Sequence record: PQ433349.1
Length of the DNA: 64,000 nt
Direction: 5' to 3' (one strand)
Source: Escherichia phage vB_Ec-G1
Within the stretch, counting starts at the first letter, position 1. Every line of letters starts with the position of its first letter. The notes below the pieces were generated by a model. It made no database searches. It saw only the letters and a program-made list of their open reading frames with translations, and was not told the origin of the DNA. Both the position numbers and the translations under genes were made by a program. Positions 1 through 64,000 of the stretch are shown here, in pieces.

Positions 1-1619
1 CAACTACAATTACTAATTTACCCGAAACATCAAAAGTTAATGGTTCAGATTACCTGGTTTTAGACCAACCTGATAAGACTGTTAAAAGCACAGTTTCCAA
101 CTTTCTTGCTGACACTGGGGTGGTTTTAGCCACCCAGTTGAAAGATACAGATGGAGCAGATTTAATAGGCTCACCACATGCCGGAACTCTGGCACAAATG
201 TTGCCGTGGGTTACTCCAGAGCAATTTGGCGCTGTTGGTGACGGTGTAACAGATGATATTGCGGCTCTTGACGCCTGTATGTCATACGCGAGAGAACGCG
301 GAGTAGATATCGTATTTTCCAAAACTTATGCCATTTCCAGACCCTACGTAATATATATGGGGCTACGGAGGAACCCACGCCATATAGGTATGGGTAATAT
401 GGCAAAAATAATCATTACAACTACGGCCACATCTGGGCTTCCGGTTGATTCTTATGAGATTCCTATGGACGTTAACGCGGCTGTTATTGTAGCCGCGATC
501 ACAGGTACAGGGTATAACCAGCAACCACAGAACTTCCGCTGGGAAAACATCGACATTGATACTACTGTAAATGCAGATTACGGCATGTATACGACAAAAA
601 TGCAATCAGCATCCATACGGAACTTCAGGACTCATAATTTCAAAACAGGTATCCAAGATAACGGGTCATGGAATACTTTGTATGAAAATATAAAAATGAC
701 AAAACACAGTATTGTTGGCTTCCGTAAGACTAGGGGTACTAGCACTACTATACGTAACTGTTATGTAGAGCAATCCACCGTAGGGTATCACGTTCGCAGT
801 GGCTATTCTCAGCTTGAGGGTTGTGCTTGTGATACAAGTACAGATGTATCTTATTGGATTGAAGGCAACCCTGTAGCGTCTAGTAGTGACGATACTTTCT
901 CTATTGTATCTTGTGGCTCAGAGAACTCAGGCAAAGCTGTTATACGATTAACTGGTACAGTTACACTTAGTGTAAGAAACTTCCAAGCATTTAACTGGGC
1001 GCAGCAGCAAGACCCTATACCTGAATACTTCATGGATTTACAGTCAAATAGCGCTAGTATATCTCTTGAAGATATACGGTATTTAGGTATTAGCGCCGGA
1101 CGAATAAAAGATACTGGGGTTAGTAACAATATAACCATTCGCAACATGACTACACGTGGAAGCGATGTGCGCAGCGGCGATGTACTGCCGAATAGCACCA
1201 AGATTATTGAAATGTCGCGTTCAGGTGTTCGTGTGTCTTCCGGTTATTCCCCTGATGGGATACTTATAGATTTTGACAATCTCTTCTTCACCACAGGGTC
1301 TAGCACTCAGCCAGTAAACTACAGTCCATTATTCAATAAGCAGCGTATATACCGCACGAAGGTGACGGTAACAAGAACATCGGGAACATATGGGAGAGCA
1401 CAAGTAACTTTGCCATTCAATTTTTCTGATACAAGTTATGTAGTGCAACTTACACCCAATGTGTACCATACCGACATAGCTACACATGCTCTCGTGGCTA
1501 CTGTTGGGCCTACAGACAAGACAGTAAACAGTTTTTATGTAAATTTAGGTAGCATCAACGGCAGCAGTACGTGGACTAGTTGTCAGGTTGATGTTACCGT
1601 TTTCGGACTGACTCCATAA
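1..1619 (+). CDS. tailspike/depolymerase-like protein (pectate-lyase-like), 5-prime partial
   Basis: Reading frame of track ORF 120..1619 stays open back to window start (no stop from nt 3); FGAVGDGVTDD motif typical of pectate-lyase-fold tailspikes. Confidence 0.6.
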   Translation, partial: TTITNLPETSKVNGSDYLVLDQPDKTVKSTVSNFLADTGVVLATQLKDTDGADLIGSPHAGTLAQMLPWVTPEQFGAVGDGVTDDIAALDACMSYARERGVDIVFSKTYAISRPYVIYMGLRRNPRHIGMGNMAKIIITTTATSGLPVDSYEIPMDVNAAVIVAAITGTGYNQQPQNFRWENIDIDTTVNADYGMYTTKMQSASIRNFRTHNFKTGIQDNGSWNTLYENIKMTKHSIVGFRKTRGTSTTIRNCYVEQSTVGYHVRSGYSQLEGCACDTSTDVSYWIEGNPVASSSDDTFSIVSCGSENSGKAVIRLTGTVTLSVRNFQAFNWAQQQDPIPEYFMDLQSNSASISLEDIRYLGISAGRIKDTGVSNNITIRNMTTRGSDVRSGDVLPNSTKIIEMSRSGVRVSSGYSPDGILIDFDNLFFTTGSSTQPVNYSPLFNKQRIYRTKVTVTRTSGTYGRAQVTLPFNFSDTSYVVQLTPNVYHTDIATHALVATVGPTDKTVNSFYVNLGSINGSSTWTSCQVDVTVFGLTP

Positions 1620-2648: not shown

Positions 2649-4135
2649 TGGACGAATATGGTTTGACAGATGCGGGATTTGTAATCCCGACTTTTGACGA
2701 TGTTCTAAACAATTATATGACAGCAGTAAAAAACACATTTGGTGCAGATGCAGCCACTTCGGAAGATACTGTGATCGGACAACTGTTTAGAATAATTGCA
2801 TACACAGATTACACATTGTGGGAAGGTATGCAAGGTGTTTATAATACTCAAACACTGGATGGTGCAGAAGGTATTTATCTTGATGAAATCTTTTCTAAAC
2901 GCGGTTTCTATCGAGCAGGGGCAGCAGCAAGTACAGGTTATGCATATGTTAAGAGTAATAACAAAGCAGCTTGGACTTATGAGCTAGGCACGGATATTTA
3001 CTTCAACTCTGATAGTGATATGAACTACTATGTTAGCACACCAACTATGTTGAATGCTAAGATTGCAGCTTATCAAATCTCTCGTGCTAATGCAACTGCT
3101 ACAGGTGTTCCAAATATTACTTTTTATGCACAAAGTGCGGTAGATGGAGGACTAAACAGTAAAACACTTGCACCTGGTTCTTCTACATTTATAACCGATC
3201 TTGAAACTTTTATCAAGGCAAATTTAACAGAAGCTGATCGTAGTCTTGTATTTTCTGATTCAGGTAACTTATCAATTGGTTTTACTTCTTTAACTAGTGA
3301 TACTCCAGTGGGACTGGTAACTCCTATTAAATTTTATGCTAGTGTTCCGGTTGGAACCAAGTGGAGTGAGATTCCGGTAGTTGCAGCAGAGAAAGGATAC
3401 AATCCTGTTGGTGTGGAGTCTATTACAGGGATATCTTCTACCTTTACAGGTTATCTTGACAGTGGTAACTTCTATTCATTTTCTCCTGGTCGAGATGTTG
3501 AGACAGACGCAGAATTCCGCTCTCGTTTCAATGACAATGTTGATGAAGCTAACGCAGGGACACGAGCAGCCATTGTGAAAGCTCTGCTACTTACAGATGG
3601 TGTTACTAAGGTGAAGATTTACGATAACCCTACGTTACATGATCAAGAACATGCTCCGGCTATGACTTTCCAGACTATAGTTTATGGAGGAAGTGCTGAA
3701 GAAGTTGCTGAAGTTATTTACAAAACTAAACCAATCAACAGTTTGACACATGGAACAACCAACATAACTGTTACAACGGAAGACGGAGGACAAGAAATTA
3801 TTCGCTTCTCCCCTGGTGCTTCTGCTATGTATTCCGTAAAACTTGTTTATCAAACTGTCAACGGAACAACTTTAAGTGGAACAGAAAAACAAAACATCGT
3901 AGAAGCTTTACAAAACCTGCAAGCTTACTTTGAGTTAGGTTCTTCAGTAACGAACGATCAAATCAAAGGTGTTATTTATGCAGCACTTGCTTTTGGACGC
4001 TTGACTTCTCTTCGTGTTTATGTTAAACTTAATACTGAGGATGACAGTAAATATACAGAGAATAATATAGTTCCTGCTTATAATGTTGTCCCTTCTTTTG
4101 ACCTTGATAACATTTCTTACGAGTATGGAGTGTAA
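2648..4135 (+). CDS. baseplate protein (Baseplate J-like)
   Basis: 495 aa; position in tail module and N-terminal resemblance to baseplate J-like wedge proteins (from memory, not searched). Confidence 0.5.
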   Translation: MDEYGLTDAGFVIPTFDDVLNNYMTAVKNTFGADAATSEDTVIGQLFRIIAYTDYTLWEGMQGVYNTQTLDGAEGIYLDEIFSKRGFYRAGAAASTGYAYVKSNNKAAWTYELGTDIYFNSDSDMNYYVSTPTMLNAKIAAYQISRANATATGVPNITFYAQSAVDGGLNSKTLAPGSSTFITDLETFIKANLTEADRSLVFSDSGNLSIGFTSLTSDTPVGLVTPIKFYASVPVGTKWSEIPVVAAEKGYNPVGVESITGISSTFTGYLDSGNFYSFSPGRDVETDAEFRSRFNDNVDEANAGTRAAIVKALLLTDGVTKVKIYDNPTLHDQEHAPAMTFQTIVYGGSAEEVAEVIYKTKPINSLTHGTTNITVTTEDGGQEIIRFSPGASAMYSVKLVYQTVNGTTLSGTEKQNIVEALQNLQAYFELGSSVTNDQIKGVIYAALAFGRLTSLRVYVKLNTEDDSKYTENNIVPAYNVVPSFDLDNISYEYGV

Positions 4136-21855: not shown

Positions 21856-21884
21856 AGTATAAGTCCCTTCCGCAAAGTTGTCAA
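21856..21884 (-). promoter_or_regulatory. sigma70-like promoter
   Basis: On minus strand TTGACA, 17-bp spacer, TATACT, upstream of gene 21391..21822. Confidence 0.45.
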
Positions 21885-36251: not shown

Positions 36252-36332
36252 TATTTTCTCCTTTCTCTTTGCGGGGAACCACTCCCCGCCTCATGTGATA
36301 CATCTTACTCTATTCTAAAACTTTGTCAACAC

Positions 36333-56317: not shown

Positions 56318-56372
56318 TATTTTAACTTTTTTCATTTTTAGAACAAAGGTGTCACTTTGTAGCACAGAAATA

Positions 56373-56408
56373 AGGCTCCTACAGCACCGTAGAGAGCCTG
56401 TTATTTTG
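56373..56408 (+). terminator. intrinsic terminator
   Basis: ggctcctac agcacc gtagagagcc hairpin followed by tgttattttg. Confidence 0.6.
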
Positions 56409-56561
56409 TCCTATACAAACCCTTATCTTTTTCAGTTTGCATCACTAGGATTCGATCTAAGTGGGTTCCTGAAGGTCTGCCAATAAGATTAAAGGTTATC
56501 TCAAATTCCCACTACCTATTATCTCAAAAATCCCTCAAATTATTTAAACTTTTTAAGAATT

Positions 56562-56740
56562 TACAAAAGTGAAAGTTGAAAACCAAAATTTAAAGTTTAG
56601 GAAAATTATCTTAAAATGTTAGATACAAAACAAAACTCAAAAATCAAGGAAAATTTTAAAAATTTTGCGCGCCCACAGTATTTAAAGTTTTTTTGCTTTT
56701 ACAAAAATGAAAGTACAAAAGCAAAATTTAAAGTTTACAA
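56562..56740. repeat. two about 38-bp direct repeats in an AT-rich non-coding region
   Basis: acaaaagtgaaagttgaaaaccaaaatttaaagtttag (56562-56600) vs acaaaaatgaaagtacaaaagcaaaatttaaagtttac (56701-56740), about 33/38 identical. Confidence 0.6.
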
Positions 56741-56789
56741 AAATTTATGCAGATGGGAATGAGAAGAGTTCTCATATGGAAATGCAAAT

Positions 56790-56860
56790 GATAATGATTC
56801 GCATTTAGGTTTATAAATGAGATTGATTCTTATTCAATAAGGTAAATGATAATCATTCTC
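56790..56860. promoter_or_regulatory. pair of Fur-box-like sites
   Basis: gataatgattcgcatt and aatgataatcattctc versus E. coli Fur consensus GATAATGATAATCATTATC. Confidence 0.45.
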
Positions 56861-57097
56861 ATTTAAAGAATGACGCGCAGGGGCGGTGTTTGTCTCGCGC
56901 TCCCGTGTCCCCTCGCCATGTAATAAGAATAACAGATCCAGCCAGGAAAGCAAGCGATTATTTTATCTTTACATTTCTTTACAAATATATAGCGCCCAGC
57001 CTACCGGCGATCAACCTTCCAACCAGTGCCCCCTGGTATGTTAGCCCCGCCTTTACGCCGTGGGGTGGCGCTTCCTCTTCTGTATGTAAAACAGTAT

Positions 57098-57135
57098 AAG
57101 CCCGATCCCTGGGCTTGTCAAGATTATTTTTTGTT
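57098..57135. terminator. stem-loop with T-run
   Basis: aagcccgatccctgggctt hairpin then ttattttttgtttt on plus strand; also just past stop of minus gene. Confidence 0.4.
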
Positions 57136-57390
57136 TTCTTGCCAGGATAGGACACCTAACCAAAAATATATATCGCCCCGCGCCCCTGGTGGTATCTTGC
57201 TTTCCCCGCCGCCACTGCAAGCCCATAGATAACCATTTGCGAACGTATCAAAATGATCTATCTCTTCCACCTTATGATCGCCCAGGTTGAGAACGGTTTC
57301 AACCTTTAAGCCCGTTGCGCTTGCTACCTGGTGCACCGTGCCGCCTTGCCAGCCCAATGAGTGCATAAGGTGTAATGTAGTATTTGTCAT
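57124..57390 (-). CDS. hypothetical protein in GC-rich island
   Basis: Track ORF 88 aa; codon usage unlike rest of window. Confidence 0.45.
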   Translation of the reverse strand: MTNTTLHLMHSLGWQGGTVHQVASATGLKVETVLNLGDHKVEEIDHFDTFANGYLWACSGGGESKIPPGARGDIYFWLGVLSWQENKK

Positions 57391-57499
57391 GGTATCGCCC
57401 TTTCTTTGATGTGCGCCCTGGTTGGCGCGGTAGAAAGATGATAGCCCTTTCTTTTATATATAGCAAGCAAAAAGAAAATAAAAAAGATTGAAAAAGTGA

Positions 57500-57556
57500 T
57501 TGACGTTCGCCAGGTGGCGGCATAATATTTACCACGTAGGGCGGCAATGGTGCCGC
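57500..57556 (+). promoter_or_regulatory. promoter plus leader hairpin cassette A
   Basis: TTGACG-17-TAATAT, then ccacgtagggcggcaatggtgccgc hairpin. Confidence 0.6.
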
Positions 57557-57577
57557 TCATTATTTGGAGTTAAAATC

Positions 57578-57775
57578 ATGGCAACATTGCACATTGTGGC
57601 GAAAGCTGGACAAATAAACGTGGTAGTAAACGGTTTTACTGAGTTCAGTCATCCCCAGGATGATCATGAAACGGTTTTATCTTTCATTGATTCACTGTTA
57701 GAAATGGGAGTAATTACAGAAGACCAGCACGCTACAAAATGCAAGCGCGTTAATCAAATTGCAGGGATAGAATAA
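57578..57775 (+). CDS. small protein (65 aa)
   Basis: ATG after cassette A and GGAG RBS; internal Met of track ORF. Confidence 0.5.
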   Translation: MATLHIVAKAGQINVVVNGFTEFSHPQDDHETVLSFIDSLLEMGVITEDQHATKCKRVNQIAGIE

Positions 57776-57781
57776 AAAGTA

Positions 57782-57842
57782 TTGACAACAAACAACAACC
57801 TGATAAGATGTATCACATAGGGCGGCGGAATGGTCCAGCCGC
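57782..57842 (+). promoter_or_regulatory. promoter plus leader hairpin cassette B
   Basis: TTGACA-16-TAAGAT (TG upstream), then tcacatagggcggcggaatggtccagccgc. Confidence 0.6.
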
Positions 57843-57867
57843 TCACAACAGAAGAGAGATTATAATC

Positions 57868-58140
57868 ATGGCATCATATAGCGCAACAATGATCGTAGCT
57901 GGCACCACTGGTAAACCTATGCGCGGTGGCGGATCTTTCGCTAATATCAATATTGACGGGCGTTTATCCCTGGACGCAGCGATCACCGTGGCGCGGGAAA
58001 CATTTAAGAAAGAATGTAAATTCAATAAACAAGATTATCTCGGTTTCGCTATTGAAAAAACCGCGCGTTTTGTTGATTATAAAAGCCCAAAAATGGTTGA
58101 TACTACACTAAAAGCGCAAGATGTAGCGTTTTTGCTTTAA
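57868..58140 (+). CDS. small protein (90 aa)
   Basis: ATG after cassette B and AGAGAG RBS. Confidence 0.5.
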   Translation: MASYSATMIVAGTTGKPMRGGGSFANINIDGRLSLDAAITVARETFKKECKFNKQDYLGFAIEKTARFVDYKSPKMVDTTLKAQDVAFLL

Positions 58141-58143
58141 GGC

Positions 58144-58199
58144 TTGACATTAACGAATAATTTGTTAATATGTTACATAAAGCGGGAATAGTTCCCGCT
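58144..58199 (+). promoter_or_regulatory. promoter plus leader hairpin cassette C
   Basis: TTGACA-17-TAATAT, hairpin agcgggaatagttcccgct. Confidence 0.55.
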
Positions 58200-58216
58200 A
58201 TTTGTAAGGTGGTAGA

Positions 58217-58474
58217 ATGTTTTACATCAAATTAAAAGGTCACGTGATCGCGTTCAAAGATAACGCTTTTTACAGATTAGCAAAATATGCGTTAATACAT
58301 CCCCACTATGTTTATATAAGGGGGCGTGATGAAATAAATATCTTTGATCAAACAACATGCGAGAACATCGAGATCCGCAAGGTTGGCGTACGTGATTATC
58401 GTACATCTTTCTACCCTTGCAAGGATTCAGCAAGTCTTTTTAAAGTATGCCAATTGTTGAAAAAAGGTGGTTAA
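58217..58474 (+). CDS. small protein (85 aa)
   Basis: Track ORF; AAGGTGG RBS. Confidence 0.5.
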   Translation: MFYIKLKGHVIAFKDNAFYRLAKYALIHPHYVYIRGRDEINIFDQTTCENIEIRKVGVRDYRTSFYPCKDSASLFKVCQLLKKGG

Positions 58475-58475
58475 T

Positions 58476-59033
58476 ATGGGCCGCGAATATGTGATCCAGT
58501 CTTGGGTAAAACATGAAGCAGATGATCCGCGCATCATTCCCGATCATCTTATCGATGAATCCACGGGATATAGCGGTGAGCAAATAGGTAACAGATTAGC
58601 ACGTAGTAACGGCAACGTAAAAGCGCGTTATGTGCGCCCTGGTTGGCTGGCAAATGGTAACGCTGATTTATCCAGTGCGGAAGATGCGAGCGACGGCGCG
58701 AAAGATAATCCTTTGTACAAAGTTGATCCGGCTTTTCGTGTCCTGGATGAATACCCCAGCAAGATAGCGGCGCTCGATCAGGCCCTGGAAAGTAAGCGCA
58801 TCACCTGGACCGCTTACAACATGGCAAAAAACGTACTTGATGGTAAATTGATTCAAGCTGAAAGAAAATTAGCCAAAATTGCAGCCATAGCCCAGGAGGA
58901 AGACGAGGAGACAACGGAAGAGGAAGAGTACGAAGAGATCCCGCCGTTGTTGTGTGTTGATGCTTTTCCTGATTATCAGCCGACAGAGGAAGAAAAAAGG
59001 ATCGCACTAGAAAACTTTGAAAATAGTCTTTGA
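58476..59033 (+). CDS. hypothetical protein with acidic C-terminal region
   Basis: Internal Met of track ORF 58467..59033; no own cassette, likely co-transcribed. Confidence 0.5.
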   Translation: MGREYVIQSWVKHEADDPRIIPDHLIDESTGYSGEQIGNRLARSNGNVKARYVRPGWLANGNADLSSAEDASDGAKDNPLYKVDPAFRVLDEYPSKIAALDQALESKRITWTAYNMAKNVLDGKLIQAERKLAKIAAIAQEEDEETTEEEEYEEIPPLLCVDAFPDYQPTEEEKRIALENFENSL

Positions 59034-59086
59034 CATATCGCCGCCACTGGCATAATATTTACCACGTAGGGCGGCAATGGTGCCGC
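59030..59086 (+). promoter_or_regulatory. promoter plus leader hairpin cassette D
   Basis: TTGACA-17-TAATAT overlapping previous stop; about 45 nt identical to cassette A. Confidence 0.6.
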
Positions 59087-59115
59087 TCATAGTGAAATTA
59101 TGCAAGAGGCTTACA

Positions 59116-59211
59116 ATGATTAATAAAGAAAATAGCTTGACGGTTGGAACGATTAACGCTATCATTCTAGCCGTTCCATTTTGGATTGTAGTAGCGGCTA
59201 TTATTTTCTAA
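59116..59211 (+). CDS. small membrane peptide (31 aa, not in ORF track)
   Basis: ATG after cassette D; single hydrophobic helix. Confidence 0.35.
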   Translation: MINKENSLTVGTINAIILAVPFWIVVAAIIF

Positions 59212-59219
59212 AAATATTC

Positions 59220-59280
59220 TTGACAACGTTTTTTAATCTGATAAGATGTATCACATAGGGCGGCGGAATACTTCCCCGCC
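59220..59280 (+). promoter_or_regulatory. promoter plus leader hairpin cassette E
   Basis: TTGACA-16-TAAGAT, tcacatagggcggcggaatacttccccgcc. Confidence 0.6.
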
Positions 59281-59301
59281 AAAACAAAAAAGGGTAACAC
59301 A

Positions 59302-59664
59302 ATGAGCAAGCAAATCAATACTATCATGTTTAATCTGGTATCTTTCCGCGATGATATGAAAAATTTACCACGTGAAACGGTTGATATTCATGTTTCAGCT
59401 TATCGCGCCCTTATTGACATGTTACCGCTAAAACGTGATCAACATGCCGCTAATATGATGCTTAATGCTATGCTTAAAAAGATGATTCAAACGGATCTTA
59501 CTCTGGCGTATGAGTATCAAGGGCGCTTATATGCGACTTACAACAAAGCGGTACCTGGTCTGGGAAGTACCGAAGAGTTGCACGGCTTAAACCTGGATCA
59601 AAACACTTGGGATAGTATGCGCCGCGTTATGGTATGGGCCGAAAGCGGTAAAATTTACGAATAA
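59302..59664 (+). CDS. hypothetical protein (120 aa)
   Basis: Track ORF after cassette E. Confidence 0.55.
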   Translation: MSKQINTIMFNLVSFRDDMKNLPRETVDIHVSAYRALIDMLPLKRDQHAANMMLNAMLKKMIQTDLTLAYEYQGRLYATYNKAVPGLGSTEELHGLNLDQNTWDSMRRVMVWAESGKIYE

Positions 59665-59670
59665 AAACGG

Positions 59671-59726
59671 TTGACACTGTTTAAACTTCTGGTATAGTTT
59701 ATCACGTAGGGCGGCAATGGTGCCGC
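59671..59726 (+). promoter_or_regulatory. promoter plus leader hairpin cassette F
   Basis: TTGACA-16-TATAGT, tcacgtagggcggcaatggtgccgcc. Confidence 0.6.
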
Positions 59727-59747
59727 CAACAATAAAAGGTTAACATC

Positions 59748-59927
59748 ATGGCTATCATTGCAAAAACTGAGATTATAGGTTTAGATTCGATCCTCCTGGC
59801 TTATGAGGAAACTTTAAAAATGTATGTAGTGACCTATGGTGATTATGTGCGTGAATACGAATACATTGATCTTGCTTTCGAATGTTACATTCGCCAGGTC
59901 AATAAAGCCTATAATGATTATCGTTAA
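59748..59927 (+). CDS. small protein (59 aa, not in ORF track)
   Basis: ATG after cassette F with AAAGG RBS. Confidence 0.45.
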   Translation: MAIIAKTEIIGLDSILLAYEETLKMYVVTYGDYVREYEYIDLAFECYIRQVNKAYNDYR

Positions 59928-59946
59928 AAGTTTTAGTCTTATACTA

Positions 59947-59997
59947 TTGACAATGAGTGATAGTATAAGCATAATAACTTTTATCGGGAATACTTCC
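59947..59997 (+). promoter_or_regulatory. promoter plus leader hairpin cassette F2
   Basis: TTGACA-17-CATAAT flanked by palindrome cttatactat...atagtataag; hairpin gggaatacttccc. Confidence 0.5.
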
Positions 59998-60024
59998 CAC
60001 TAACCAAAAAGAGAGAGTGACACC

Positions 60025-60390
60025 ATGGCTATTAATATCAATGTTTCCGCTTATGCTACCCTGGCTAACACGGCTAAAATTGAATTATCCAGCATTGAGG
60101 CGGTGCATATTAGCGCCCGTCGCTGGTTTCAACGGTCCTACGGTAATACATATTTTTCTTTAATGGTTGACGTTGAGATCGGCGGTAAACTGATCGAGGT
60201 GGTTAACGTTCCGTTTCAATATGGCTATGGTGATCATTTTGATACCGTCGCCCTGGAAGAATTTAGCAAGGTTATTAATATGGAAGGTAAAGAGTTTTCA
60301 CGTGGCGCGTATCTTTCCCGTTTTTGCCGTGATAATGGGATCACTGTATACAGTCATGCAAGCGATGTAAAACGTAAAAAAGATTTATAA
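60025..60390 (+). CDS. hypothetical protein (121 aa)
   Basis: Track ORF; AGAGAG RBS. Confidence 0.55.
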   Translation: MAININVSAYATLANTAKIELSSIEAVHISARRWFQRSYGNTYFSLMVDVEIGGKLIEVVNVPFQYGYGDHFDTVALEEFSKVINMEGKEFSRGAYLSRFCRDNGITVYSHASDVKRKKDL

Positions 60391-60396
60391 AAAGCA

Positions 60397-60456
60397 TTGA
60401 CAGCACGAATAAAAAGAGTAAACTGTATTACATAGAGAGCGGGAATAGTTCCCGCC
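60397..60456 (+). promoter_or_regulatory. promoter plus leader hairpin cassette G
   Basis: TTGACA-16-TAAACT, ttacatagagagcgggaatagttcccgcc. Confidence 0.55.
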
Positions 60457-60479
60457 TCACTGAAAAAGAGAGAAAAATC

Positions 60480-60719
60480 ATGGCTAAATCTAAAATGTAC
60501 AACGGTCACAAAAACAAAACTCATTGGAATGTAAGCCTGTGGATTAATAACGATGAGGGATTGTATCGGTTTGCATTGGGATTGATCAATGAGTGCGGTA
60601 ATAAAGATCAGGCGGCTGATTTAATGTGCTACCGTTTGAAACAGGATGGAATCACTACAACGCCAGACGGCTTTAAGTATAGTAAAACTGCAATCCGCGC
60701 CGCTATGGTTGGAATGTAA
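60480..60719 (+). CDS. small protein (79 aa)
   Basis: Track ORF after cassette G. Confidence 0.5.
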   Translation: MAKSKMYNGHKNKTHWNVSLWINNDEGLYRFALGLINECGNKDQAADLMCYRLKQDGITTTPDGFKYSKTAIRAAMVGM

Positions 60720-60728
60720 TAAAAACAG

Positions 60729-60787
60729 TTGACAACGTTTAAAATTAGTGTAAGATGTATCACATAGGGCGGGAAATGGTTTCCCGC
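60729..60787 (+). promoter_or_regulatory. promoter plus leader hairpin cassette H
   Basis: TTGACA-16-TAAGAT, tcacatagggcgggaaatggtttcccgc. Confidence 0.6.
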
Positions 60788-60813
60788 TCACAACAGAAGA
60801 GAGATTAAAGATT

Positions 60814-61041
60814 ATGGCTATCAATATTGTTCGCGTATCCGGTACCGTTGGTAACTCCCAGGTTGTAGCAGTTATCACAGAGAAGAAAGGGGATGATCTT
60901 CACTCTTCCTTGAATAGCTGGGCGGTCGCTAACTTCGGGCAATGGTCGAGCGTTGAGTACATCGAATCCTACCAGGTGCCGACGATTAGCCTAACCGATC
61001 TCAACGTTGATCGCTTGTTGTGCCTGGATGAATTAATCTGA
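60814..61041 (+). CDS. small protein (75 aa)
   Basis: Track ORF after cassette H. Confidence 0.5.
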   Translation: MAINIVRVSGTVGNSQVVAVITEKKGDDLHSSLNSWAVANFGQWSSVEYIESYQVPTISLTDLNVDRLLCLDELI

Positions 61042-61051
61042 AAAAAGATTA

Positions 61052-61111
61052 TTGACACCGGAAAGAAAAAGAGTAGAATATATTACATAGGGCGGCGGAA
61101 TGGTCCACCGC
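61052..61111 (+). promoter_or_regulatory. promoter plus leader hairpin cassette I
   Basis: TTGACA-16-TAGAAT, ttacatagggcggcggaatggtccaccgc. Confidence 0.6.
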
Positions 61112-61136
61112 TCACAACAGAAGAGAGATTATCACG

Positions 61137-61352
61137 ATGGCTAATATCCGCACTTTACTGAAAAATGCAAGTCAAGTTTTATTTTCAGATGACGAGTATT
61201 TCAATAAAGACATTACAGGCGTGAAAAATTTAAAAGACGTGAAGGATGTTATCGGTATCCGTGGATCTTTACGTAAGGGCGATTACTACGGTAACAAGGT
61301 GCAATATAAACTGTCAAAGGATTACAATTTTACTTTGACAATTATTTCATAA
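61137..61352 (+). CDS. small protein (71 aa)
   Basis: Track ORF after cassette I. Confidence 0.5.
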   Translation: MANIRTLLKNASQVLFSDDEYFNKDITGVKNLKDVKDVIGIRGSLRKGDYYGNKVQYKLSKDYNFTLTIIS

Positions 61353-61358
61353 AACCGC

Positions 61359-61418
61359 TTGCAATACTGCAAAAATAAAGTAAACTATATTCATCAAGGC
61401 GGGGAATGGTCCGCCGCC
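61359..61418 (+). promoter_or_regulatory. promoter plus leader hairpin cassette J
   Basis: TTGCAA-16-TAAACT, hairpin ggcggggaatggtccgccgcc. Confidence 0.5.
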
Positions 61419-61442
61419 TAACAAAGAGAAGAGGAAAACATC

Positions 61443-61610
61443 ATGATCACTTTCGCTACCCGTGAAGCCGCTCGCAACGTTGCACGTAAAGTTAACGCCG
61501 CCAACCTGGGCGCTACGCTTAAAGCCCCGGTGAAAGATGAATCAGGCAAATGGATCTTCCCTGGTCTGCGTCATGCTGACAAGTTAGGTACTTTAAGCCT
61601 TAAAAAATAA
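61443..61610 (+). CDS. small basic protein (55 aa, not in ORF track)
   Basis: ATG after cassette J; first 21 nt identical to start of 61685..61906. Confidence 0.45.
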   Translation: MITFATREAARNVARKVNAANLGATLKAPVKDESGKWIFPGLRHADKLGTLSLKK

Positions 61611-61613
61611 TCG

Positions 61614-61649
61614 TTGACTTTTCGTTATAGCGCCTTACAATGGGCGCTA
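61614..61649 (+). promoter_or_regulatory. promoter-like element with hairpin, cassette K (variant)
   Basis: TTGACT then hairpin tagcgcc ttacaatg ggcgcta; -10 unclear. Confidence 0.35.
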
Positions 61650-61684
61650 TAGAGAAGAGAAACCACTGCTAACAAGGAAACATC

Positions 61685-61906
61685 ATGATCACTTTCGCTA
61701 TTGTCGCCGTTGTCGCTGGTCAGGTTTACGTAAACGATACATTCACCACAGAAGACAAGGCCGCAGGAGACATAACCGCCGTTTACAATGAGTGCAAGGC
61801 AGTAGAAAGGATGTTAGCGCCTTGTATGCTAATGAGTGAACGCCAGGACGGGATAACAGTATTTACTAACATTGAAACAGGGTACCAAATGGTAGTAACA
61901 AAATAA
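61685..61906 (+). CDS. small protein (73 aa)
   Basis: Track ORF; N-terminus MITFA shared with 61443 ORF. Confidence 0.5.
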   Translation: MITFAIVAVVAGQVYVNDTFTTEDKAAGDITAVYNECKAVERMLAPCMLMSERQDGITVFTNIETGYQMVVTK

Positions 61907-61909
61907 AGC

Positions 61910-61965
61910 TTGACACGGATTTAATTTTTAGTAAACTGTTACACGTAGGGCGGGAATAGTTCCCG
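61910..61965 (+). promoter_or_regulatory. promoter plus leader hairpin cassette L
   Basis: TTGACA-16-TAAACT, ttacacgtagggcgggaatagttcccgc. Confidence 0.6.
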
Positions 61966-61985
61966 CTCAAAAAGAGAGAAAGACC

Positions 61986-62339
61986 ATGAAAGCACAAAAT
62001 GCAATTAAAGAGTACATCCTTGCCGCTATCGATTTTAATGATTACGGTATTACAACCGAAAAAGAGAAGATCGCGGAATTGATGCGCCGTTTTAATTCCG
62101 AGTACTGGTACCCTGATAACCAATCACGTTTTAATTATAGTATTGTTAAAGCACTTGCATCATGGTTACAAGGCTTGCCATCAGATATCAATATCGCTTT
62201 CGAATATTGGGAAATTGATCGCCTGTTAACATCCTGGGGATACATTAAAGAGAATAGCAGCGATGATAAAATCCAACGAGAAAGGGAAAATTATTGGCTT
62301 TATATTGCAGGCGTGATCCTTGCTTGCTCTTATGAATGA
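61986..62339 (+). CDS. hypothetical protein (117 aa)
   Basis: Track ORF after cassette L. Confidence 0.55.
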   Translation: MKAQNAIKEYILAAIDFNDYGITTEKEKIAELMRRFNSEYWYPDNQSRFNYSIVKALASWLQGLPSDINIAFEYWEIDRLLTSWGYIKENSSDDKIQRERENYWLYIAGVILACSYE

Positions 62340-62345
62340 TAAACC

Positions 62346-62398
62346 TTGACAATTTTACAAAACAGTTTAAATTAACAATATAGCGGCAATGGTGCCGC
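62346..62398 (+). promoter_or_regulatory. promoter plus leader hairpin cassette M
   Basis: TTGACA, AT-rich -10 region, hairpin gcggcaatggtgccgc. Confidence 0.5.
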
Positions 62399-62418
62399 TC
62401 ATATGAAGAGGAAACAAA

Positions 62419-62565
62419 ATGAATACATCTAATCGCGCAGAAAAAATTCAATCTTCCAAGATCCGCAAGGCCTGGAACGAGGAAGTGATCCGCAAAGGCG
62501 ACAAGCGCAATAAAACAAAGCGCGGGAAGAGTGACAAATATAATTGGATGGATTTAGAGGATTAA
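62419..62565 (+). CDS. small basic protein (48 aa, not in ORF track)
   Basis: ATG after cassette M with GAGGAA RBS; terminator follows. Confidence 0.4.
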   Translation: MNTSNRAEKIQSSKIRKAWNEEVIRKGDKRNKTKRGKSDKYNWMDLED

Positions 62566-62572
62566 CATAACA

Positions 62573-62600
62573 AGGGCGCACCAAGCGCCCTTTCTTTTTA
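62573..62600 (+). terminator. intrinsic terminator
   Basis: agggcgc accaa gcgccct hairpin followed by ttctttttat. Confidence 0.75.
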
Positions 62601-62620
62601 TATACAGAGGATAAACAAAG

Positions 62621-62806
62621 ATGACTTTAAACGAGCTTAAAACAGCCTACAACGCAACATTAAAAATAGCCGTGCGTTACCGTGATGCGTATGGTTTTAT
62701 CGCGCAGGGCGTGATCCTGGGCTTTTCTGACGATGGTTTGATCTATGTTGATGCACATCACAACAAGGTTAAACCTGAAAACGTCATTAACATAAAATAT
62801 CTTTAA
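62621..62806 (+). CDS. small protein (61 aa)
   Basis: Track ORF; GAGGA RBS. Confidence 0.5.
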   Translation: MTLNELKTAYNATLKIAVRYRDAYGFIAQGVILGFSDDGLIYVDAHHNKVKPENVINIKYL

Positions 62807-62812
62807 AAACGG

Positions 62813-62870
62813 TTGACACCATAACCGGACCTGTTAAACTGTATTACATCAGGCGGGGGAATAGTTCCCC
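62813..62870 (+). promoter_or_regulatory. promoter plus leader hairpin cassette N
   Basis: TTGACA-16-TAAACT, ttacatcaggcgggggaatagttcccc. Confidence 0.55.
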
Positions 62871-62892
62871 ACCATACAAAAAGGTAAATATT

Positions 62893-63099
62893 ATGATCAC
62901 CGCAAAACAAGAAAAAATTATTATCGACGTTGCAGCCGTTGCCGCTATTGCTATTATTGGATCTTATTATGATACCCGTTTCCCGTCGGCTATGCATGAG
63001 ATCGCCGCCGTTGCATCAGTTGGCGTGCTGTTTTACGTTGGTAAACGCTATTTATCACCAATGATTAACAAGCTAACACCGTGGAAAAATAAAGGTTGA
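62893..63099 (+). CDS. small membrane protein (68 aa)
   Basis: Track ORF; two hydrophobic helices. Confidence 0.5.
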   Translation: MITAKQEKIIIDVAAVAAIAIIGSYYDTRFPSAMHEIAAVASVGVLFYVGKRYLSPMINKLTPWKNKG

Positions 63100-63150
63100 T
63101 CCTGCTTTATATTGTGTTATAGTTATCGTGTAGGGCGGCAATGGTGCCGC
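63096..63150 (+). promoter_or_regulatory. promoter plus leader hairpin cassette O
   Basis: TTGATC-16-TATAGT, tcgtgtagggcggcaatggtgccgc. Confidence 0.55.
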
Positions 63151-63171
63151 GCCCCCTTTGAGGATGAAATC

Positions 63172-63456
63172 ATGAGTAAAGCTAACACCGTGCTAATGTT
63201 TTCCTTGGTTAATGATGCCGCTTACTTGTCCAACATGACGCAGGAGGGTAACACATTAACGGCAACATTCACCAATAAGCTTAATCGAGTGATCATCATC
63301 TCACTGAAAACAATTAGTAAAGGCGTTTACTCGTTAGCTTATCATTGGATCACTGATACCAACGAGACAAGCCAGGACTATAGCGCCCCTTTCCCTGAAT
63401 CAATGGCACGGGAGATCATCGCCGCCGTTGTAAATGATGGTTTGTTTACTGCATAA
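63172..63456 (+). CDS. hypothetical protein (94 aa)
   Basis: Internal Met of track ORF 63112..63456, after cassette O. Confidence 0.5.
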   Translation: MSKANTVLMFSLVNDAAYLSNMTQEGNTLTATFTNKLNRVIIISLKTISKGVYSLAYHWITDTNETSQDYSAPFPESMAREIIAAVVNDGLFTA

Positions 63457-63474
63457 AATAATTTAGAAAAAGGC

Positions 63475-63530
63475 TTGCAATCATTTTGAGATAGTGTATA
63501 TTTAATTCATAGGGCGGCGGGAATAGTTCC
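63475..63530 (+). promoter_or_regulatory. promoter plus leader hairpin cassette P
   Basis: TTGCAA-16-TATATT, ttcatagggcggcgggaatagttccc. Confidence 0.55.
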
Positions 63531-63554
63531 CAAGGCAAACGAGAGGATTACACG

Positions 63555-63674
63555 ATGAGCAAGTACACAGTAGAATACACGGTACAAAATCCGGCAGTAT
63601 CCGAAGGTAAAAAGATGACATTTGCCATCAGTATAATCGCTTTCGTTGTCACTATCTTATTAATCATCTTATAA
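63555..63674 (+). CDS. small membrane peptide (39 aa, not in ORF track)
   Basis: ATG after cassette P with GAGAGG RBS; C-terminal hydrophobic helix. Confidence 0.4.
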   Translation: MSKYTVEYTVQNPAVSEGKKMTFAISIIAFVVTILLIIL

Positions 63675-63684
63675 GGTGCGTACC

Positions 63685-63846
63685 ATGAAAACAACAGACA
63701 TTATCAAAGAGATCGCCCTTGCCGCTGACGTTGAGATCGAGGAAGTGATCGCGCTCAATCTTACAGAAGAAGACTTGCGCAATTATGAAGCGGAAAGCGT
63801 GAAAGCAAGCGGCGCGGTCCTGGCATATAATCCGGCTAACAAGTAA
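63685..63846 (+). CDS. small acidic protein (53 aa, not in ORF track)
   Basis: AAGGTG RBS then ATG. Confidence 0.4.
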   Translation: MKTTDIIKEIALAADVEIEEVIALNLTEEDLRNYEAESVKASGAVLAYNPANK

Positions 63847-63855
63847 GGGGATAAC

Positions 63856-64000
63856 ATGAATCCGAAAGATATGCAAGCATGGAAAGGGTACGACGATCTA
63901 AGCGCCTTGCGCAATAAGTCAAGCCGTAACCTTAGACGGTTAGAAGCAAAGAAAAAGAAAAACAGTTTGACAAGTCCGCTTAATCTGGTAAAGTGTATCT
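63856..64000 (+). CDS. small protein, 3-prime partial at window end
   Basis: AAGGGG RBS then ATG; ORF open to window end. Confidence 0.35.
   Translation, partial: MNPKDMQAWKGYDDLSALRNKSSRNLRRLEAKKKKNSLTSPLNLVKCI
63966..64000 (+). promoter_or_regulatory. promoter cassette Q (partial at window end)
   Basis: TTGACA-17-TAAAGT followed by gtatct as in other cassettes. Confidence 0.45.

Follow-up and report, generated by a model that had tools for sequence, protein, structure and literature searches.

Tandem promoter and leader-hairpin cassettes preceding small ORFs in a phAPEC8-like coliphage, a variant of the PeSL-type cassettes of T4-like phages

PeSLs, known from T4-like phages, are cassettes that combine an early promoter with a stem-loop and border ORFans in hyperplastic regions (PMC2839356, PMC4122927). 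An RB49 stem-loop strongly reduced expression of a lacZ reporter, to about the same extent as rrnB T1, and PeSL mini-circles were found by inverse PCR in RB49 and phi1, one with its crossover in the loop (PMC2839356). Here, we describe an array of related cassettes in a 64,000 nt stretch of Escherichia phage vB_Ec-G1 (PQ433349.1; ‘the window’), which belongs to a phAPEC8-like coliphage of the genus Phapecoctavirus and is ~95% identical to ESCO13. A first-pass annotation did not recognise the repeated unit as a described promoter class. Given that PeSLs had already been described, we conclude that the array is an undescribed variant of PeSL-type cassettes rather than a wholly new promoter class. 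The two systems differ in the position of the hairpin: in the RB49 PeSLs, the sequences of which we read directly, it lies within the promoter and is missing from that promoter's own transcript, whereas the typical cassettes here carry it in the leader of the transcript, ~3 nt away from its predicted 5′ end. Because the RB49 hairpin is outside its own transcript, a function common to both systems cannot need a 5′-terminal position. The RB49 hairpins are intergenic and have no T-tracts, a lack that they share with 16 of 17 hairpins here, and one cassette of the array, at 61614, has its hairpin around the -10 element in the RB49 layout. GenBank record MZ726793 annotates the hairpins described here as ‘rho-independent terminators’ (WebGeSTer), together with some of the promoters.

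The plus strand from 57500 to 64000 carries 18 near-consensus sigma-70 promoters in a head-to-tail row (Table 1). This confirms an array of at least 18 promoter and leader-hairpin cassettes, as first proposed, except that the hairpin layout is atypical in one cassette and the hairpin weak in two. The repeated module is ~75–105 nt long and consists, in order, of an A-rich stretch, a sigma-70 promoter (TTGACA, mostly a 16 bp spacer, TAnnnT), a start region conserved across modules (C-A-C-R-T-A-G-G), a GC-rich hairpin, an RBS and a small ORF. An RBS and ATG follow in all 17 complete cassettes, supporting the original description of the unit as a sigma-70-type promoter, a leader hairpin, an RBS and one small ORF; in cassette 4, the -35 hexamer contains the TGA stop codon of the upstream ORF. 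The pattern TTGACA-N15-19-TANNNT-N5-12-TAGGGCGG occurs seven times, against 0.00 expected from shuffles, and all 10 exact copies of TAGGGCGG are on the plus strand within 57537–63517. The limits first given for the array (57480–64000) were too narrow, since there is a further cassette on the minus strand at 36329, upstream of a homologue of the ESCO13 TerC-like membrane protein, and the ESCO13 array extends ~3 kb past the equivalent of the window end; the ESCO13 orthologue of cassette 18 goes on into hairpin GGGCGGCAATGGTGCCGCTC. A visibly higher GC content had also been reported, but the difference is marginal (0.40–0.42 in the array and 0.36–0.43 elsewhere, with 8–12 kb being higher), and enterobacterial-like codon usage in the array was not borne out.

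Table 1 Cassettes and associated features of the window. Plus-strand cassettes begin at the first nucleotide of the -35 hexamer; promoters are given as -35, spacer (bp) and -10
Feature	Coordinates	Strand	Promoter or sequence	Hairpin	Downstream ORF or remark
Solitary same-class cassette	36252..36329	-	TTGACA-16-TAAGAT	36289-36271 (GCGGGGAGTGGTTCCCCGC)	ATG 36251
Cassette 1	57500..57577	+	TTGACG (57500-57505), TAATAT (57523-57528)	57539-57558 (GGGCGGCAATGGTGCCGCTC)	57578-57775 (65 aa)
Cassette 2	57782..57867	+	TTGACA-16-TAAGAT	57820-57844	57868-58140 (90 aa)
Cassette 3	58144..58216	+	TTGACA-16-TAATAT	58181-58199	58217-58474 (85 aa)
ORF (185 aa)	58476-59033	+			Adjoins cassette 3 ORF; no cassette of its own
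Cassette 4	59030..59115	+	TTGACA-17-TAATAT	59069-59088	59116-59211 (31 aa, hydrophobic)
Cassette 5	59220..59301	+	TTGACA-16-TAAGAT	59259-59280	59302-59664 (120 aa)
Cassette 6	59671..59747	+	TTGACA-16-TATAGT	59710-59727 (core)	59748-59927 (59 aa)
Cassette 7	59947..60024	+	TTGACA-17-CATAAT	59986-59998 (weak, -5.5 kcal/mol)	60025-60390 (121 aa)
Cassette 8	60397..60479	+	TTGACA-16-TAAACT	60435-60458	60480-60719 (79 aa, Pfam DUF7249)
Cassette 9	60729..60813	+	TTGACA-16-TAAGAT	60767-60789	60814-61041 (75 aa)
Cassette 10	61052..61136	+	TTGACA-16-TAGAAT	61090-61113 (C.A mismatch)	61137-61352 (71 aa)
Cassette 11	61359..61442	+	TTGCAA-16-TAAACT	61397-61419	61443-61610 (55 aa)
Cassette 12 (atypical)	61614..61684	+	TTGACT-16-TACAAT	61626-61651 (-16.2 kcal/mol; -10 in loop)	61685-61906 (73 aa)
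Cassette 13	61910..61985	+	TTGACA-16-TAAACT	61948-61968	61986-62339 (117 aa)
Cassette 14	62346..62418	+	TTGACA-16-TAAATT	62382-62399	62419-62565 (48 aa, basic, Pfam Phage_1_1, T7 gp1.1 family)
Canonical intrinsic terminator	62572..62592	+	AAGGGCGCACCAAGCGCCCTT then TCTTTTTATA		Within array
ORF (61 aa)	62621-62806	+			Downstream of terminator; no promoter of its own
Cassette 15	62813..62892	+	TTGACA-16-TAAACT	62852-62873	62893-63099 (68 aa, hydrophobic)
Cassette 16	63096..63171	+	TTGATC-16-TATAGT	63133-63153	63172-63456 (94 aa)
Cassette 17	63475..63554	+	TTGCAA-16-TATATT	63519-63531 (weak, -7.8 kcal/mol)	63555-63674 (39 aa, hydrophobic)
ORFs	63685-63846; from 63857	+			Both downstream of cassette 17 ORF
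Cassette 18	63967..64000	+	TTGACA-16-TAAAGT		Cut by window end

Of the 17 complete cassettes, 16 have a hairpin that begins 8–16 nt (mostly 10–11 nt) past the -10, and in the remaining one it encloses the -10. Fourteen of the 16 are stable (-11.4 to -16.6 kcal/mol), starting 8–11 nt past the -10, and two are weak. When the predicted leaders were folded, as the first-pass annotation had suggested, the remainder of the leader in the 14 stable cassettes was predicted to be open, including the purine-rich RBS. Relative to shuffled sequences, 13 leaders have z-scores of -2.3 to -4.0, with -1.5 for cassette 4 and, despite a good fold, only -0.9 for cassette 16. Hairpin-to-ATG distance has a standard deviation of 4.2 nt, as compared to 2.1 nt for the spacing from the -10; note that the former is also fairly constrained, and that the selection filter used accounts for part of the narrow -10 spacing in the set of 81 cassettes. 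Only the hairpin of cassette 1 has a T-rich tail (1/17), whereas the terminator at 62572–62592 has a T-tract.

The two arms of the hairpin co-vary. For 47 distinct hairpins, mean folding energy was -12.6 kcal/mol, as compared to -9.1 kcal/mol for chimeras with swapped arms, and none of 2000 permutations reached the real mean. The wobble pairs, 24 in number, all have G in the 5′ arm and T in the 3′ arm, and there are nine mismatches of the C.A or A.C kind, a pattern that mildly favours plus-strand RNA. At orthologous sites in six relatives, all 44 variant hairpins fold at -9 kcal/mol or better; the variation includes swaps of complete hairpin variants and, in one case, a C-to-T substitution by which a C.A mismatch becomes a T-A pair. 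Note that recombination homogenises the cassettes, which are paralogues, so that their similarity within one genome does not count as independent evidence.

Arrays were also found in phi92, rV5-like and Certrevirus phages, in line with an earlier proposal to look for the motif in other phage genomes. ESCO13, Mt1B1_P17 and 536P1 (Phapecoctavirus), phi92 (Justusliebigvirus), slur16 (Vequintavirus) and PcCB7V (Certrevirus) have the same architecture, and we conclude that it is conserved across four genera. Loop sequences differ between genera, with pairing and -10 spacing kept: in rV5-like phages, the discriminator has diverged as well as the loop, but the distance from the -10 to the start of the hairpin is still 10–12 nt. 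Whole modules vary between relatives. Phage KKP 3954 lacks the cassette 6 ORF and cassette 7, three relatives have an extra ~310 nt module inserted at the cassette 12 site, and ORFs inserted in relatives either bring their own cassette or reuse an existing one. Of the 16 breakpoint ends seen in comparisons with phi92 and four relatives in Phapecoctavirus, 12 fall within cassettes, which make up ~27% of the region, although this enrichment is partly built in, since breakpoints were taken from BLAST alignment ends, which are biased to conserved cassettes.

Our leading explanation, which we hold tentatively and at somewhat less than even confidence, is that the array forms the front portion of the rightward early region of a phAPEC8-like myovirus, with early promoters whose leader hairpins protect and insulate short mRNAs, and with repetition driving module shuffling. 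A 5′ stem-loop on early mRNAs was among the functions first suggested, and we likewise rank it first. E. coli RNA polymerase would fire from each module right after infection. The transcript would begin with the purine that ends CAC(A/G), the seventh to eighth nucleotide past the -10, placing the hairpin ~3 nt from the mRNA 5′ end, where it could block 5′-end-dependent decay by RNase E and RppH, much as an ompA-type 5′ stem-loop. In read-through transcripts from upstream modules, the same hairpin would sit just 3′ of the preceding cistron and, after processing, might act as a barrier against 3′ exonucleases. In this view, the hairpin acts in RNA form to protect ends and to insulate, and it may also prevent the G-rich leader from disturbing the RBS. 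It is probably not an efficient terminator, since a strong terminator just downstream of a promoter would shut off the very gene that the promoter serves. Being near-identical repeats, the modules could double as homology tracts through which whole ORF modules are gained, lost or replaced and hairpin variants copied from module to module, much as has been suggested for PeSLs in T4-like phages. Protection of the 5′ end is at odds with the RB49-type cassette at 61614, the two weak-hairpin cassettes, the strong hairpin-less promoters elsewhere in the genome and the lacZ attenuation seen with RB49. A search of the accessible literature on this phage group turned up neither mapped transcription starts nor RNA half-lives or timing of expression.

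Alternatively, the hairpins may have the role suggested for the stem-loops of PeSLs, as attenuators, terminators or 3′-end barriers for upstream transcription that would limit the build-up of read-through along the array, their location in their own leader being incidental. The lacZ reduction by the RB49 stem-loop (PMC2839356), the intergenic, T-tract-free hairpins of RB49, the layout of cassette 61614, the WebGeSTer calls in MZ726793 and the confinement of this hairpin class to the tandem array and one other site, also with a co-directional upstream gene, are all consistent with such a role. Nonetheless, we consider it rather unlikely: the T-rich tail used in the phage's canonical terminator is missing from 16 of 17 hairpins, efficient termination downstream of a hairpin's own promoter would abort its own transcripts at ~+30, cassette 1 has a hairpin despite ~1.2 kb of upstream sequence with no co-directional gene, and attenuation does not require the -10 spacing that rV5-like phages keep despite their divergence. 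A protein might alternatively read the hairpin as an RNA tag, either a boxB/nut-like loading site for antitermination or a handle by which a phage or host factor shuts off or degrades immediate-early mRNAs together. Uniformity of the loop region, (G/C)-A-A-T-(G/A)-G-T, within Phapecoctavirus and phi92 goes far beyond pairing needs, and the rV5-like hairpins have GC stems and A-rich loops of 4–6 nt, which we take to be reminiscent of the lambda and P22 boxB elements. In addition, the hairpin is promoter-proximal, like nutL, expression of ORF 62621–62806 needs read-through of the in-array terminator, and the array codes for a small, very basic T7 gp1.1-family protein. However, loop sequences vary between genera, uniformity within a genome is explicable by gene conversion, T7-like phages also have gp1.1 homologues without such arrays, and we found no boxA-like element and no Rfam match; an RNA tag therefore seems to us quite improbable.

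Two further explanations place the function of the hairpin in DNA. Following the PeSL mini-circle model, the cassette could be kept as a recombination module whose palindrome, with no RNA function, promotes exchange of ORF modules, for example by forming cruciforms or slipped structures or by serving as a recombinase or nuclease site. Consistent with this, insertion, deletion and replacement breakpoints lie within cassettes, orthologous sites swap whole hairpin variants, and the RB49 and phi1 mini-circles include a crossover in the loop (PMC2839356). The breakpoint enrichment is partly a product of the alignment-end bias, however, and the 40–60 nt of promoter and leader homology would suffice for exchange, leaving unexplained both the fixed distance from the -10 and the pairing kept through sequence change in four genera; we regard this explanation as very improbable. 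The inverted repeat might otherwise be a double-stranded DNA operator spanning +4 to +27, at which a dimeric phage repressor turns off all early promoters together, as was also suggested initially. A palindrome just past the predicted start site, at fixed spacing from the -10, is in the classical roadblock position. Nevertheless, half-sites differ among cassettes (GGGCGGCA, GCGGGAA, GGGGCG, GGGGCAAG and others), stem lengths vary, and the conserved outer blocks, GCGG and CCGC, are 8 to 13 nt apart. Since complementarity is kept through compensatory rather than sequence-preserving changes, with more G.T wobbles than A.C-type mismatches, we give an operator almost no credence.

The first-pass description of the cargo as small ORFs, several of membrane type, agrees with our analysis: several are hydrophobic, and their functions are unassigned. 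They had also been put forward as candidates for host takeover or anti-defence; family matches were limited to the T7 gp1.1 family (62419–62565) and one DUF (DUF7249, 60480–60719), the former giving the array an early-gene flavour. Elsewhere in the genome there are strong promoters that lack a hairpin, at window positions 21884, 48237 and 50515 on the minus strand.

The first-pass annotation had described an array of promoter-hairpin cassettes near the end of the window, and a script and promoter scan confirmed it, placing 18 sigma-70-like promoters on the plus strand from 57500 to 63967. The −35 is a perfect TTGACA in 12 of the 18 cassettes and the −10 is TAnnnT in every cassette but one, which has CATAAT; the spacer is 16 bp long in 14 cassettes and 17 bp in four. 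An A-run lies upstream of the promoters, often overlapping the preceding stop codon, and a conserved start region, CAC(A/G)TAGG, precedes the hairpin. The composite TTGACA-N15-19-TANNNT-N5-12-TAGGGCGG occurs seven times against 0.00 expected, and the exact octamer TAGGGCGG ten times, always on the plus strand and always within the array. These 18 copies in 6.5 kb lie beside small ORFans; in ESCO13 the matching segment opens a long rightward block of small hypothetical genes, with a non-coding divergent region directly before it. The last of the 18, cassette 63967, is truncated at the end of the window. Two details were revised. The GC content of the segment (0.40–0.42) is barely above that elsewhere in the window (0.36–0.43), and the cassettes are not limited to the proposed interval, since a cassette of this class is also present on the minus strand, upstream of a TerC-like membrane gene. 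The whole segment is 94–95% identical over its full length to ESCO13, ECML-183-2, ECO340P1, Mt1B1_P17 and many other phages; these phages are members of Phapecoctavirus, a phAPEC8-like genus of Stephanstirmvirinae whose genomes are ~150 kb long. The ESCO13 array extends ~3 kb past the point that matches the end of the window.

Folding bore out the hairpins read by eye in the leaders: 14 cassettes have a single dominant hairpin of 7–10 bp (−11.4 to −16.6 kcal/mol), and no pairing is predicted for the remaining leader sequence or its purine-rich RBS. Relative to dinucleotide shuffles, z-scores are −2.3 to −4.0 in 13 leaders and −1.5 for cassette 59030 (cassettes are named by the start of their −35); cassette 63096 combines a good fold with a poor z-score (−0.9), and the hairpins of cassettes 59947 and 63475 are weak. 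G predominates in the 5′ arm and C in the 3′ arm. The 14 stable hairpins begin 8–11 nt past the last base of the −10, and in 16 of the 17 complete cassettes the hairpin starts 8–16 nt after the −10, beyond the expected start site. In cassette 61614, the −10 hexamer lies within the loop of a −16.2 kcal/mol hairpin. As a discriminator, the variance of the −10-to-hairpin distance differed only modestly from that of the hairpin-to-ATG distance, and this comparison is partly circular because of the selection filter used. Rfam gave zero matches at E values up to 1, and a tRNA search found none. Mt1B1_P17 and ECO340P1 keep the promoter, RBS and ORF of the first cassette but have, in place of its leader, an unrelated one of 113–120 nt that lacks the standard hairpin. 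A degenerate cassette in phage 536P1 has the promoter and the TCACGTAGGGC start region but is missing the hairpin, comparable to the ‘half PeSLs’ described in T4-like phages, where PeSL denotes a promoter-early stem-loop cassette.

MAFFT alignments of the cassettes had gaps distributed asymmetrically between the arms. Because they gave no trustworthy column-wise structure, we used an arm-swap permutation and a comparison of orthologues; pair counts on paralogues with differing stem length would be inflated by register shifts. Swapping arms among 47 distinct hairpin sequences from six genomes weakened the mean fold from −12.6 to −9.1 kcal/mol, and none of 2000 random re-pairings matched the real mean, a value that is flattered by the hairpins having been picked partly by fold energy. 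The promoters in the window were found independently of the hairpin, and 14 of 17 nonetheless have a stable hairpin after the −10. Among 93 comparisons of orthologous sites across six Phapecoctavirus genomes, 42 are identical and 44 differ, and all 44 that differ fold at −9 kcal/mol or better; the remaining seven, with weak folds, all come from two cassettes whose hairpin is weak in each of the genomes. In one case a C-to-T substitution converts a C.A mismatch to a T-A pair. Elsewhere one hairpin variant replaces another wholesale at a single site, as at cassette 61052 (GGGCGGCGGAATGGTCCACCGCTC to GGGCGGCAATAGTGCCGCTC), which suggests that gene conversion occurs among the cassettes. There are 24 wobble pairs, every one a G.T with its G in the 5′ arm, compared with nine C.A or A.C mismatches, a mild bias towards pairing in plus-strand RNA over minus-strand RNA or symmetric duplex DNA.

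The first-pass annotation had suggested looking for the motif in other phages, and direct inspection of relatives found cassette arrays in four genera. BLAST with one 95-nt cassette matched 143 phage records, usually in three to eight places each; these records are 136–161 kb long and mostly named members of Stephanstirmvirinae and Vequintavirinae. An rV5-like phage departs from Phapecoctavirus both in the loop, which is AACA, AAA, GACGT or AACAA, and in the stretch that links the −10 to the hairpin, yet its hairpin still starts 10–12 nt past the −10 and keeps its G-rich 5′ and C-rich 3′ arms. An IMG/VR scan for the 15-mer TATCACRTAGGGCGG returned 48 short loci with fragmentary flanks; contig sizes suggest that most of these are chance matches in unrelated contigs, and they were not used. 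Among the BLAST matches, the same cassettes occur at high identity in ‘Campylobacter phage’ C3 and A141 (140–146 kb), ‘Acinetobacter phage vB_AbaM_ABPW7’ and ‘Klebsiella phage ZCKP1’; these host labels may be unreliable, or the hosts unusually broad or misassigned.

We scanned the complete genome of 536P1 (149,471 bp) on both strands with the hairpin sequence unfiltered. There are 107 strong promoter-like sites on the two strands; the hairpin class comprises the 16 sites of the array and a solitary terC site, with none among the remaining strong sites. Near-consensus sigma-70-like promoters that lack a hairpin instead have a short unstructured leader and precede genes outside the small-ORF array, both in 536P1 and in the window. 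We conclude that the hairpin is an extra element that belongs to the small-ORF array and does not characterise the promoters of this phage in general.

Positions and copy numbers of cassettes and associated features in the window and in related phages
Feature	Genome	Position	Strand	Detail
Array segment	window	57480-64000	plus	
Counterpart of array segment	ESCO13	139035-145541		
Solitary cassette	window	36329	minus	upstream of TerC-like gene
Hairpin-class sites	536P1	83.5-90.7 kb		
Degenerate cassette	536P1 (L061)	~42318 (record position 92318)		
Replaced first-cassette leader	Mt1B1_P17 (L003)	2879-2993		orthologous to window 57529-57557
Replaced first-cassette leader	ECO340P1 (L057)	280-401		orthologous to window 57529-57557
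Cassettes	phi92 (Justusliebigvirus)			at least 12 copies
Cassettes	slur16 (Vequintavirus, rV5-like)			8 copies
Cassettes	PcCB7V, Pectobacterium phage (Certrevirus)			at least 3 copies
Hairpin-less promoters	window	21884, 48237, 50515	minus	leader type CATCAACCAAACAAGAGGAGAA-ATG
Hairpin-less promoters (examples)	536P1 (L060-L062)	47016, 76210, 101964, 115025, 133429		
Hairpins annotated as terminators	ASO2A, MZ726793 (L005)	148173-151259		
First-cassette hairpin	window	57539-57558		passes terminator scan
Canonical terminator in array	window	62572-62592		AAGGGCGCACCAAGCGCCCTT-TCTTTTTATA, T-tract
ORF with DUF7249 match	window	60480-60719		
T7 gp1.1-family ORF	window	62419-62565		48 aa
ORF after canonical terminator	window	62621-62806		
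Stretch without convincing ORF	window	56320-57120		~800 nt
Direct repeat, 72 nt	window	56536-56607 and 56674-56745		82% identical
Tandem repeats	window	56758-56865		29-nt spacing
Fur-box-like sequence	window	56842-56860		GTAAATGATAATCATTCTC
Region conserved in phi92	window	57001-57529		94.7% identity

Alignment of the window with four Phapecoctavirus relatives and phi92 showed that insertions, deletions and replacements relative to the five are whole ORF modules. Mt1B1_P17, ECO340P1 and tuntematon carry an extra module of ~310 nt, with a 219-nt ORF, inside the leader of cassette 61614, and a 361-nt module after 63845 has its own cassette with a different hairpin, GGGGCGACAAGCGCCCC. KKP 3954 lacks 59754-60021, comprising one ORF and the following cassette, and the deletion junction falls at CATCATGGCTA, which is common to two cassettes. 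In phi92, other ORFs lie between conserved cassettes. Junctions were inspected at 61665/61680, 59754/60021 and 63845. Overall, 12 of 16 breakpoint ends are inside cassettes, although these account for ~27% of the sequence; this enrichment is consistent with cassette-mediated exchange but does not prove it, because alignment ends favour conserved sequence.

Pfam searches covered all 20 complete ORFs of the array; PHROGs searches covered the first ten, which matched unknown-function families only. Several ORFs, including ones of 31, 39 and 68 aa, are short and hydrophobic, and one matches DUF7249. The very basic product of another falls into the T7 gp1.1 family (Pfam Phage_1_1, E = 5e-13) and is 98–100% conserved in Phapecoctavirus and 60% in phi92. 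At its N-terminus, NRAEKIQSSKIRKAW bears a loose resemblance to the arginine-rich motif of lambda N. The protein is a speculative candidate for an RNA-binding partner of the hairpins.

The first-pass annotation had not recognised the array as a described class of promoter, and this stands only in part. PeSLs were first reported from RB49 and phi1, two T4-like phages, and subsequently from PST/T4 and nt-1/KVP40, as a sigma-70 promoter with a stem-loop made of a G-run, a loop and a C-run; they sit between the ORFans of hyperplastic regions and are linked to indels, with formation of mini-circles possible, and one PeSL stem-loop had an attenuating effect in a lacZ reporter (Arbiol et al. 2010, PMC2839356; Comeau et al. 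2014, PMC4122927). The array agrees with PeSLs on four points: repeated intergenic cassettes of 60–100 nt with an A/T-rich stretch, a near-consensus sigma-70 early promoter, a Shine-Dalgarno sequence and an ATG; in the same cassette, a G-run/loop/C-run stem-loop lacking a T-tract; clustering in a hyperplastic region of small ORFans; and indels or replacements between close relatives that are bounded by cassettes. It departs from PeSLs in its hosts, which are unrelated to T4 (Stephanstirmvirinae and Vequintavirinae, not Straboviridae), and in position. PeSL subclasses have the stem-loop upstream of the −35, over the −35, in the spacer, over the −10, or after the −10 before the start (PMC2839356), and the PST and nt-1 cassettes carry it upstream of the promoter (PMC2839356, PMC4122927). 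In the RB49 hyperplastic region, we found hairpins in the −35/−10 spacer (TTGACAGGGGATCACCGATCCCCTATAAT) or enclosing the −10 (GGGAGTGTCGCTAAGATACTCCC), without a T-tract, and leaders that are unstructured. In the array, by contrast, the hairpin of 16 of the 17 complete cassettes lies in the predicted transcribed leader, at a near-fixed distance in the stable ones, and cassette 61614 alone fits the RB49-type layout. We conclude that the array consists of PeSL-like cassettes with a leader-encoded hairpin, in the phi92 and rV5 phage groups.

Our literature search did not find the motif in phAPEC8-, phi92- or rV5-like phages, although an earlier mention in the phi92 or PVP-SE1 papers is possible. 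The rV5 paper and its Table S4 give promoters only to 7 nt past the −10 and do not mention hairpins. The structure, striking and conserved, is apparently undescribed for these phages. The initial interpretation was supported in part. The concept has a precedent, and the proposed function is read from sequence. Dense, strong, host-type early promoters serving many tiny genes of unknown function are also known from the SPO1 host-takeover module, the hyperplastic regions of T4 and the pre-early region of T5, and the array similarly has many promoters for very small genes at one end of the early region. T4-like PeSLs aside, a conserved leader hairpin behind every promoter is not known from such regions.

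The array hairpins resemble intrinsic terminators in being GC-rich and 7–10 bp long, but 16 of 17 lack a T-tract and they lie downstream of their own promoter, so that an efficient terminator at this position would abort that promoter's transcripts. In a terminator scan only the hairpin of the first cassette passes; the tails of the others have 0–4 T in 8 nt and are mostly A-rich. The one canonical, T-tract terminator within the array is separate from the cassette hairpins, indicating that the phage employs a T-tract where termination is wanted. We therefore rank the canonical-terminator reading of the array hairpins low. In phage ASO2A, hairpins of the array type are annotated as ‘rho-independent terminator’ (WebGeSTer), and some of the promoters are annotated too; annotation software has caught the promoter and hairpin halves separately, with no joint interpretation, and from sequence these terminator labels are probably a systematic misannotation in this phage group. 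The canonical terminator looks bidirectional and directly follows the gp1.1-family ORF. The ORF after it has an RBS and no recognisable promoter, so that its expression seems to need terminator read-through.

Transcription in E. coli usually starts at the seventh or eighth nucleotide after the −10, at a purine that follows a pyrimidine. The conserved C-A-C-(A/G) matches this pattern exactly, which puts the hairpin ~3 nt from the predicted 5′ end; with a start at the seventh or eighth nucleotide, 0–4 unpaired nt precede it. A stable stem-loop a few nucleotides from the 5′ end shields E. coli mRNAs from 5′-end-dependent attack by RNase E, with ompA as the paradigm; Emory, Bouvet and Belasco reportedly described the hairpin of the ompA 5′ UTR in 1992 as a 5′-terminal mRNA stabiliser. 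Given such a start, the array leaders would resemble that of ompA, with a predicted hairpin ~2–4 nt or less from the 5′ end and an open RBS after it, but they differ in that the element is repeated ~20–25 times per genome and also lies between cistrons in read-through RNA. We reasoned that the hairpin would protect the 5′ end of its own mRNA from RNase E, as in ompA, and that in read-through RNA, where it sits 3′ of each cistron, it could block 3′ exonucleases after processing. We therefore rank first a function in RNA end-protection and insulation, combined with a role of the repeats in recombination. The Srd protein of T4 stimulates RNase E. A Srd-like protein is noted in the rV5 paper, and such a protein is a possible reason to shield early phage mRNAs. 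The main argument against end-protection is parsimony with RB49: the RB49 hairpin lies outside the transcript of its own promoter, so any single function shared with the array would have to work through read-through RNA, as attenuation or as a 3′ barrier, or else through DNA. The rival readings are ordered on that basis. A double-stranded DNA operator for a dimeric regulator, which had been proposed earlier, ranks lowest, since the half-sites differ in sequence and spacing but remain complementary.

It is also conceivable, though we consider it improbable, that the hairpin is a regulon-wide tag on all immediate-early mRNAs, akin to boxB/nut or put, for read-through or shut-off. The reader would be a phage-encoded small basic protein or RNA polymerase itself; recognition would license read-through of downstream terminators into the ~30-kb early region or, alternatively, trigger coordinated shut-off of all tagged mRNAs, and genus-specific loops would co-evolve with the reader protein. 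The array does resemble lambda nut (boxA and boxB) and HK022 put in having a promoter-proximal RNA hairpin in predicted early transcripts, and the A-rich loops on GC stems of the rV5-like versions recall lambda boxB. However, the array loops vary between genera, there are many copies rather than one per operon, and no N-like factor was identified for the array; no boxA-like element was seen on reading the cassettes by eye.

The array would extend composite promoter/stem-loop gene cassettes beyond the T4-like phages. Large virulent phages would then have come to organise and shuffle accessory early genes in this manner repeatedly, probably by convergence. Because the hairpin sits at a fixed place in the leader, a clean test is possible between action at the 5′ end of the hairpin's own mRNA, on read-through RNA and on DNA, options that promoter-embedded PeSLs are unable to separate. 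Array hairpins should not be annotated as terminators in genomes of Phapecoctavirus, Justusliebigvirus and Vequintavirus, many of whose phages are therapy candidates. The cassettes would mark ~20–25 small early genes per genome as separately promoted modules, natural candidates for screens for host-takeover or anti-defence functions, and would offer compact, strong, insulated expression units for E. coli.

Just upstream of the array, a stretch without a convincing ORF separates leftward from rightward transcription units and contains a long direct repeat; its candidate roles are those of an origin, a packaging site and a regulatory hub, and the rV5 paper likewise mentions a ‘non-coding’ box. 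Adjacent sequence is more similar to phi92 than are the neighbouring ORFs. The non-coding stretch also holds three tandem repeats, one pair of which forms a 21-nt inverted repeat. They resemble E. coli Fur boxes, one sequence having three mismatches to the 19-nt Fur consensus (0.02 expected by chance), and may bind Fur, or act as a decoy site, in this virulent phage.
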